DNA of 64,000 nt from Escherichia coli (lineage in GTDB: Bacteria > Pseudomonadota > Gammaproteobacteria > Enterobacterales > Enterobacteriaceae). Position numbers and translations under genes: made by a program. The stretch is from the NCBI RefSeq assembly GCF_050920415.1, contig NZ_CP169309.1, one strand, 5' to 3'. This document shows positions 11,819-12,233 of this stretch, in pieces (within the stretch, counting starts at the first letter, position 1; each line of letters opens with the position of its first letter). The notes beneath the pieces are model-generated. The model was not told the origin of the DNA and searched no databases. It worked only from the letters and a program-made list of their open reading frames with translations.

Positions 11819-12058
11819 TCAAACCATCACCAGCGATAACTCTTTGCCAAGCGCCTTAGCCGCAAGCTGGACGGCGTCGATTTTTGTCGCATGGTGCAAG
11901 TTAAATAAGCGCGTAATTTCCTGTTTAGGTTTGCCAATTCGCCTGGCTAACTCTTGCTGAGTGATTTCTGACGGTAAAAAAGCATTTAACAGCAATACCT
12001 TAGAGGCGACGCTCAAAGGCACTTCAATAAAGTGATCGTGACTATTTAATGGCGAAGT
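11819..12058 (-). pseudogene. hicB: hicB antitoxin remnant: only the C-terminal HTH-encoding part, no ATG, in-frame TAA immediately upstream
   Basis: ORF 11819..12022 (-) begins at a GTG; translation ...SHDHFIEVPLSVASKVLLLNAFLPSEITQQELARRIGKPKQEITRLFNLHHATKIDAVQLAAKALGKELSLVMV matches the remembered HicB C-terminus; hand translation upstream shows TAA at 12059-12061; no hicA-like sequence in 12059-12233. Confidence 0.6.
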
Positions 12059-12233
12059 TTACCTCCGTGTGTAATGTGCTCGAAAATAGCACTAAATCGC
12101 CGCAACGGCAGAATGCAATGCAAAATCAGGAAGGAAGATTCCAGAATTTCTTTGCGCTAATTTGCAAAACTGAATAATAACCTCAAGAAACGATCGGCAT
12201 CATAGCGGCAAAAGGTGAGAAAAAGGTGGCGGG

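Follow-up and report, generated by a model that had tools for sequence, protein, structure and literature searches.

A 445-bp deletion leaves a 3' hicB remnant at the chromosomal hicAB toxin-antitoxin locus of Escherichia coli

The region between yncJ and ydcR in the 64-kb stretch of E. coli DNA analysed here (the window) is very probably the non-functional remnant of a chromosomal hicAB type II toxin-antitoxin operon after a 445-bp deletion. Alignment with K-12 BW25113 showed that exactly 445 bp, corresponding to BW25113 1503498-1503942, were absent from the window, and that the flanks of the gap were collinear with K-12 at ~97% identity. The missing segment consisted of 45 nt upstream of hicA, hicA itself, the 45-nt hicA-hicB spacer and hicB nt 1-178. 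The reduction of the locus to a 3' hicB fragment, as proposed by a first-pass annotation of the same DNA, was borne out by tblastn, by a match to PDB entry 6HPB and by the K-12 alignment. The features of the region, in window coordinates unless stated otherwise, are:

10334-11740, minus strand: ydcR, conserved on the downstream side and the anchor of the locus
11741-11818, minus strand: hicB-ydcR intergenic spacer of 78 bp, with one promoter-like site, TTGTCA-16-TAGACT, at 11801-11774
11819-12056, minus strand: hicB pseudogene remnant, hicB nt 179-417 (codons 61-138 and the stop, with 1-2 nt of codon 60)
12057, no strand: deletion junction, a single G assignable to either side (microhomology of 1 bp)
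12057-12062, minus strand: surviving half-site GTAAAC (sense) of GTAAAC-N6-GTTTAC, which supplies the in-frame TAA
12053-12066: endpoint inverted repeat, at L002:1854-1863 and 2304-2313 in the K-12 locus
12062-12066, minus strand: GGAGG of the hicA leader, in the same position in K-12
12058-12233, minus strand: DNA kept from upstream of hicA (between yncJ and hicA), which aligns collinearly with K-12
12234-12464, plus strand: yncJ, the conserved and divergent upstream neighbour
12560-14563, minus strand: rlhA (ydcP)

The ancestral order would have been yncJ, hicA-hicB and ydcR. One event of illegitimate recombination, at a microhomology of 1 bp, would have removed the 445 bp and, with them, the toxin gene, the toxin-binding N-terminal domain of the antitoxin, the HicB-repressed promoter P2 and half of the palindromic operator. 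The loss would have been non-lethal because the toxin and the neutralising domain of the antitoxin went in one step. The leftover hicB codons 61-138, having no Shine-Dalgarno sequence, ATG or partner, would then have drifted as a pseudogene that is presumably not expressed. The allele is old and common: ~20% of the complete E. coli genomes carry it, ST131 and the window's own rare lineage among them, and its spread to several backgrounds most likely occurred via homologous recombination. As such, it is an ordinary remnant of toxin-antitoxin decay that is already annotated.

What remains of hicB and of its control region

The minus-strand ORF at 11819-12022, which had been reported to lack an ATG, begins with GTG and encodes 67 amino acids corresponding to HicB residues 72-138. 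In-frame homology extended upstream of the ORF to HicB residue 61, at 12055. The remnant aligned by tblastn with residues 61-138 of K-12 HicB at 98.7% identity and with the same residues of 6HPB chain B (E=1.7e-44). There was no ATG in the remnant frame up to its end, and the sole in-frame start, the internal GTG at 12022, was not preceded by a Shine-Dalgarno sequence. The frame is closed upstream by the TAA at 12059-12061. The first-pass annotation had located this stop correctly but placed 13 homologous codons before it; there are 12 between the GTG and the TAA, of which 11 encode HicB residues 61-71, while the twelfth, ACT, is the junction codon to which both sides contribute. Nor is the TAA a mutation of hicB, as it belongs to the GTAAAC upstream of hicA that the deletion brought adjacent.

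The earlier statement that neither hicA nor the HicB N-terminal domain occurs between the remnant and yncJ can be extended, since tblastn with K-12 HicA and HicB as queries found no match to HicA or to HicB residues 1-60 anywhere in the 64-kb window. Pfam places HicB_lk_antitox (PF15919) at HicB residues 3-67 and HTH_3 (PF01381) at residues 88-134, so that the remnant, which had been described as encoding only the HTH domain, does contain the whole HTH but also the linker and the last 7 residues of the N-domain. The N-terminal HicA-binding domain (partial RNase H-like) is thus lacking, only residues 61-138 being encoded, and the C-terminal HTH DNA-binding domain is present. The remnant has no complete HicB ORF with a translation start and no adjacent upstream hicA with which to form a hicAB module, as hicA falls within the 445-bp gap. 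In the window remnant, a substitution, Q88P (CAG>CCG at 11973), altered the first residue of the HTH match; among the deletion alleles compared, this lineage-specific change was otherwise found only in strain N96.

In all 13 deletion genomes fetched, PGAP labelled the fragment a pseudogene, "incomplete; missing N-terminus", and a pseudo CDS with this note has the same coordinates in E. coli MFDS1022581, which is 100% identical to the window. Older GenBank entries name the 67-residue ORF "HicB family antitoxin component" or "DNA-binding helix-turn-helix protein". The homology of the remnant covers only part of hicB, whereas relatives and outgroups carry the gene at full length, as expected of a pseudogene left by deletion. 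No NCBIfam model matched HicB or the remnant, and Rfam gave no match within the remnant. Its only hit lay downstream of yncJ, at window 12465-12508 on the minus strand, where a sub-threshold match to the REP-derived naRNA4 (E=0.0027) marks a REP-like element.

Alignment with K-12, the check proposed along with the first-pass annotation, placed the junction exactly, at 12056/12058. The junction sequence is …TTTAATGGCGAA-G-TTTACCTCCGTG…, or, in the form used as a marker, …TTTAATGGCGAA-G-TTTACCTCCG…, and there were no direct repeats at the deletion endpoints beyond the single G. The left breakpoint lies within the region coding for the PF15919 domain and the right breakpoint within a conserved palindrome. 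The K-12 sense strand reads GGAGGTAAAC-ACTAAT-GTTTAC…TATACT…GGGAGG-N5-GTG(hicA). The deletion begins directly after GTAAAC and removes the right arm of GTAAAC-N6-GTTTAC together with the TATACT box.

The palindrome, which every full-length E. coli allele retains and the outgroups retain almost unchanged, is probably the HicB operator, hicO; TATACT is probably the -10 box of P2. Both assignments were made from literature reviews and inspection of the sequence. With the right half of the putative hicO and TATACT deleted, the autoregulated P2 with its intact palindromic operator would no longer be present in the window. The GGAGG that had been noticed next to the junction is real (CCTCC on the plus strand) and belongs to the retained hicA leader, but no start codon follows it at a usable distance in the window. 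The motif is not conserved at this position in EcPF15 (ATAGG) or AST20 (AGAGG). The retained upstream region presumably still holds the CRP-S, Sxy-activated promoter P1, judging from its likely position; a scan of this region for the CRP-S motif turned up no convincing site, the best scoring 7 of 10 at an implausible position.

Distribution and origin of the deletion allele

The frequency of the deletion was determined in a set of 5,426 complete E. coli genomes. The junction, searched as a 52-mer, was found in 1,092 of them, O25b:H4-ST131 included, and was identical in 1,050, so that the deletion, which had been thought a possible event of this lineage, is not private to that lineage. The deleted 445-bp segment was present in 4,256 genomes, 886 of which fell in a band of 90-95% identity; all 7 matches listed from that band had a 22-bp deletion that frameshifts hicA. 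Approximately 78 genomes had neither the junction nor the 445-bp segment and thus represent some other state. One example is K_EC180 (L100:1-2813), where a pair of IS91-family transposase genes stands in place of ydcR and hicAB, as far as 239 bp from yncJ; this is a separate, IS-associated loss of the locus.

The lineage of the window strain is rare and divergent. Over 24 kb, ~18 genomes were at least 97.8% identical to the window, and the next best genome listed was 95.7% identical (window 9000-46000); over 7 kb, the next-best genome was 98.4% identical. An ancestral-type 67-residue remnant protein has been recorded from E. coli M863, a strain of cryptic clade I, so that the window strain may also belong to clade I.

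When ydcR, the remnant and the yncJ-rlhA side were each placed on a neighbour-joining tree, the deletion alleles were not monophyletic. The window, N96, 2013C-4282, 2017-02-2CC and RMDEC465 formed one deletion group that clustered with the full-length alleles N3, GF43 and 042, the ST131-type deletion group clustered apart from it, and AST20 stood alone. The identical deletion thus occurs on at least 2-3 flanking haplotypes. A 4-bp ATTT indel was specific to the window, N96 and RMDEC465, and in strain 042 the yncJ-rlhA spacer, the one with the REP-like element, contained an inserted IS1397 (L094:3987-5335).

Two explanations were considered for the presence of one junction on several haplotypes. 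The most economical is that one old deletion was moved between backgrounds by homologous recombination, or that its flanks were later overwritten, which would require recombination breakpoints within ~150 bp on either side of the junction. The other is that several independent deletions each removed these 445 bp at a hotspot where local DNA structure directed the breakpoints. The number of flanking haplotypes is what recurrence would produce, and a 10-nt inverted repeat with 9 of 10 positions complementary (CGAAGGTAAA / TTTACCTCCG) spans both deletion endpoints; when positions in the window were paired at random at a distance of 445 bp, 0.5% of the pairs showed such a repeat, although this one was noticed post hoc. 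A simple hairpin-bypass via this repeat was considered and rejected, because the right arm is complete in the product and the left arm is kept by half, and no simple model of that kind predicts the product observed. The repeat may nevertheless have brought the ends together.

Several observations make recurrence quite unlikely. The junction is identical to the base despite a microhomology of only 1 bp, and the junction together with a core of ~300 bp (about 11919-12220) was common to all sampled deletion alleles but AST20. This core carries 12078G, a base that is rare in full-length alleles and was found among them only in N3. Against a single origin, AST20 has three substitutions no more than 25 bp from the junction, at positions equivalent to 12066-12081, one of which is the K-12-like 12078T; it is either a tight recombinant or a fast-evolving lineage. 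A single deletion followed by recombination between backgrounds remains the reading adopted here.

Selection on the remnant and a possible retained function

Selection was assessed in an alignment of 12 deletion alleles, 7 full-length E. coli alleles and 4 outgroups. The C-terminal 78 residues of HicB were identical in K-12, O157, O112ab, N3, GF43 and Escherichia sp. E1V33, with 3-6 synonymous differences from K-12, and the identical 78 residues were encoded by 5 of the 7 full-length E. coli alleles. K-12 and E. whittamii differed by 4 nonsynonymous and 23 synonymous changes, giving an omega of ~0.05, so by sequence comparison the intact alleles are under strong purifying selection. The derived changes specific to the deletion alleles, in contrast, were 10 nonsynonymous, one of them nonsense, and 5 synonymous, for an omega of ~0.6 over the 12 alleles. 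The nonsynonymous changes included Q88P in the window, P103H in the ST131-type group, G101S and K127N. The ratio of 10 to 5 is in line with neutral evolution (binomial p=0.36) and sets the deletion alleles apart from the intact lineages (Fisher p=0.0015 against 4 nonsynonymous and 23 synonymous changes, and p=0.006 against 5 and 21). Selection on the remnant is relaxed, as judged from a small sample of 12 alleles, and an omega of 0.6 calculated from 15 changes leaves room for weak residual constraint. Of the 12 deletion alleles analysed, 11 keep the 67-codon GTG ORF uninterrupted; AST20 (L086) carries a nonsense mutation, S89*, equivalent to window 11970, and the PGAP note for this strain adds "internal stop". 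The direction is clear though the sample is small: the fragment is decaying.

An alternative is that the fragment has a retained function, the HTH-only product being translated from the GTG at 12022 as a 67-residue DNA-binding protein that might, for instance, counter addiction by repressing hicAB elements that enter the cell, or regulate locally. Such a role would explain why the 3' end was kept in many genomes and, independently, in Citrobacter, where C. amalonaticus retains a similar fragment, residues 67-137. The nearly universal integrity of the ORF in the deletion alleles and its treatment as a protein in the older GenBank annotations are in keeping with it. Furthermore, as far as a review and the title of Manav et al. 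2019 describe these properties, HicB dimerises through its HTH domains and the domain is structurally stable. This alternative is nonetheless very unlikely, 1) the GTG has no preceding Shine-Dalgarno sequence, 2) omega is ~0.6 and one allele carries a nonsense mutation, 3) replacements (Q88P, P103H, K127N, G101S) lie inside the HTH, 4) half of the fragment's own putative operator is deleted, 5) the remnants in Citrobacter constitute a continuous series of decay down to 23 residues and then nothing and 6) PGAP calls the fragment a pseudogene.

The promoter and terminator scan found no promoter-like site inside the remnant and no terminator-like site between the remnant and ydcR. Given this lack of a terminator-like site, transcripts from the upstream promoter that was kept could run through the remnant. 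A broader proposal is very unlikely as well. In it, the identical deletion lies on at least 2-3 unrelated flanking haplotypes because a short recombination tract with the toxin-loss allele was repeatedly selected, for example in B2 ExPEC and in the window lineage, and the upstream promoter that survived would drive expression of the HTH tail, which would serve as a small repressor or counter addiction. The non-functional remnant left by the deletion is preferred to both proposals.

The possibility that the 3' end of hicB was kept because it holds the promoter of ydcR was likewise considered and is unsupported. There is a single promoter-like site in the hicB-ydcR spacer, and such sites were no more frequent there than in shuffled sequence.

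Polarity and comparison with other hicAB loci

A scan of species-representative genomes with YdcR yielded 80 loci, to which tblastn was then applied. In E. coli E69, Escherichia sp. E1V33, strain SCPM-O-B-8794 and E. whittamii (L004-L007), three of these four genomes being species other than E. coli, yncJ and ydcR flanked a full-length hicA-hicB; in four genomes of Citrobacter (L008, L010, L015 and L016), the full-length pair sat immediately upstream of ydcR. The hicAB operon at the ydcR site predates E. coli, because the full operon occupies the same site in other Escherichia species and in Citrobacter. Of the two histories offered by the first-pass annotation, the deletion of hicA and the 5' part of hicB is upheld by the 445-bp gap in the K-12 alignment and by the full operon in the outgroups. 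The other, an empty ancestral site in which the short form is original and a segment with hicA and 5'-hicB was inserted in the K-12 lineage, accounts for the bare presence/absence polymorphism and nothing more, and has virtually no chance of being correct, being refuted by the sequence comparisons: the insertion would have to complete a free-standing HTH fragment, in frame, with exactly the 59 codons that it lacks, full-length hicA-hicB lies at the same place in other Escherichia species and Citrobacter, and the fragment is under relaxed selection whereas the full gene is constrained.

In Escherichia sp. E1V33 (L005:3285-3457) and Citrobacter sp. Cu233 (L015:3269-3438), the tblastn match to HicA was split into two pieces that overlap and lie in different frames, suggesting a frameshifted hicA beside an intact hicB in these strains too.

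The K-12 hicAB locus, which encodes the HicA mRNA interferase and the HicB antitoxin (PDB 6HPB, 6HPC), occupies the same slot between yncJ and ydcR, and its upstream leader is collinear with that of the window. The remnant differs in lacking hicA, HicB residues 1-60, what is probably the -10 box of P2 and one half of the operator palindrome. Unlike K-12 HicB, it would, from its sequence, be unable to neutralise the toxin, and it has no toxin to neutralise.

The 22-bp deletion allele (~886 genomes, for example O112ab:H8, O103:H2 and O111:H21) is an independent loss of HicA at the same locus. In O112ab:H8 (L003:2082-2236, within the stretch that the window lacks at 12057), the 22 bp were deleted between 4-nt CGCA direct repeats, and the frame shifts after about codon 40. 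This is a small slipped-strand deletion that, in contrast to the 445-bp deletion, leaves hicB full length, with a protein identical to K-12 HicB (WP_001270286.1), and hence an intact orphan antitoxin.

The remnants of hicB next to ydcR in Citrobacter resemble that of E. coli in having lost hicA and kept variable 3' parts of hicB, but their junctions and sizes differ. These remnants, at about 3500-3910 of the loci, correspond to HicB residues 6-138 (L019), 39-138 (L014), 67-137 (L025, C. amalonaticus) and 115-137 (L009). The HTH was internally deleted in L011 and L013, barely recognisable traces were found in L012 and L022, and no trace of hicAB was found beside ydcR in L018, L023, L026 and L027. 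Every Citrobacter deletion included hicA, and the deletions are independent and form a graded series, from loss of hicA alone to complete absence. Deletions would be expected to take the toxin first or simultaneously, with the 3' end of hicB the last to go, because cells that lost hicB function but kept hicA would not survive.

The decay of type II toxin-antitoxin systems located on the chromosome in E. coli is documented for ccdO157 (Mine et al. 2009), and an uneven distribution among phylogroups was reported by Fiedoruk et al. 2015, both as cited in PMC7167474. Such systems likewise have a conserved location, are lost by deletion or nonsense mutation and have a lineage-specific distribution. 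The present case is distinguished by a toxin gene that lies upstream of the antitoxin gene, by one deletion that took both the toxin and the neutralising domain and by an HTH-only tail that persists. HicA-domain toxins have been reported to be rare in the phylogroup B2 sequence types ST12, ST73, ST95, ST127 and ST131 (PMC10790755), and the deletion allele was found here in ST131, one of the types with this reduced toxin repertoire. That study scores the presence or absence of genes and gives no description of the junction, whereas the locus described here is seen to hold a truncated pseudogene and not an intact orphan antitoxin.

Taken alone, the finding is of limited importance, as one more documented decay of a chromosomal toxin-antitoxin system. 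It does, however, define three states of hicAB among the 5,426 complete genomes: intact in ~62%, with the 22-bp hicA frameshift in ~16% and with the 445-bp deletion in ~20%. The exact junction is a clean marker and of practical use for lineages. In the deletion remnants found in E. coli and Citrobacter, the toxin gene has always been lost and the 3' end of the antitoxin gene left, as a rule for an operon in which the toxin gene comes first. For work on HicAB in persistence, phage defence and Sxy regulation, the distribution means that more than one third of strains, including ST131, are without HicA at this locus.
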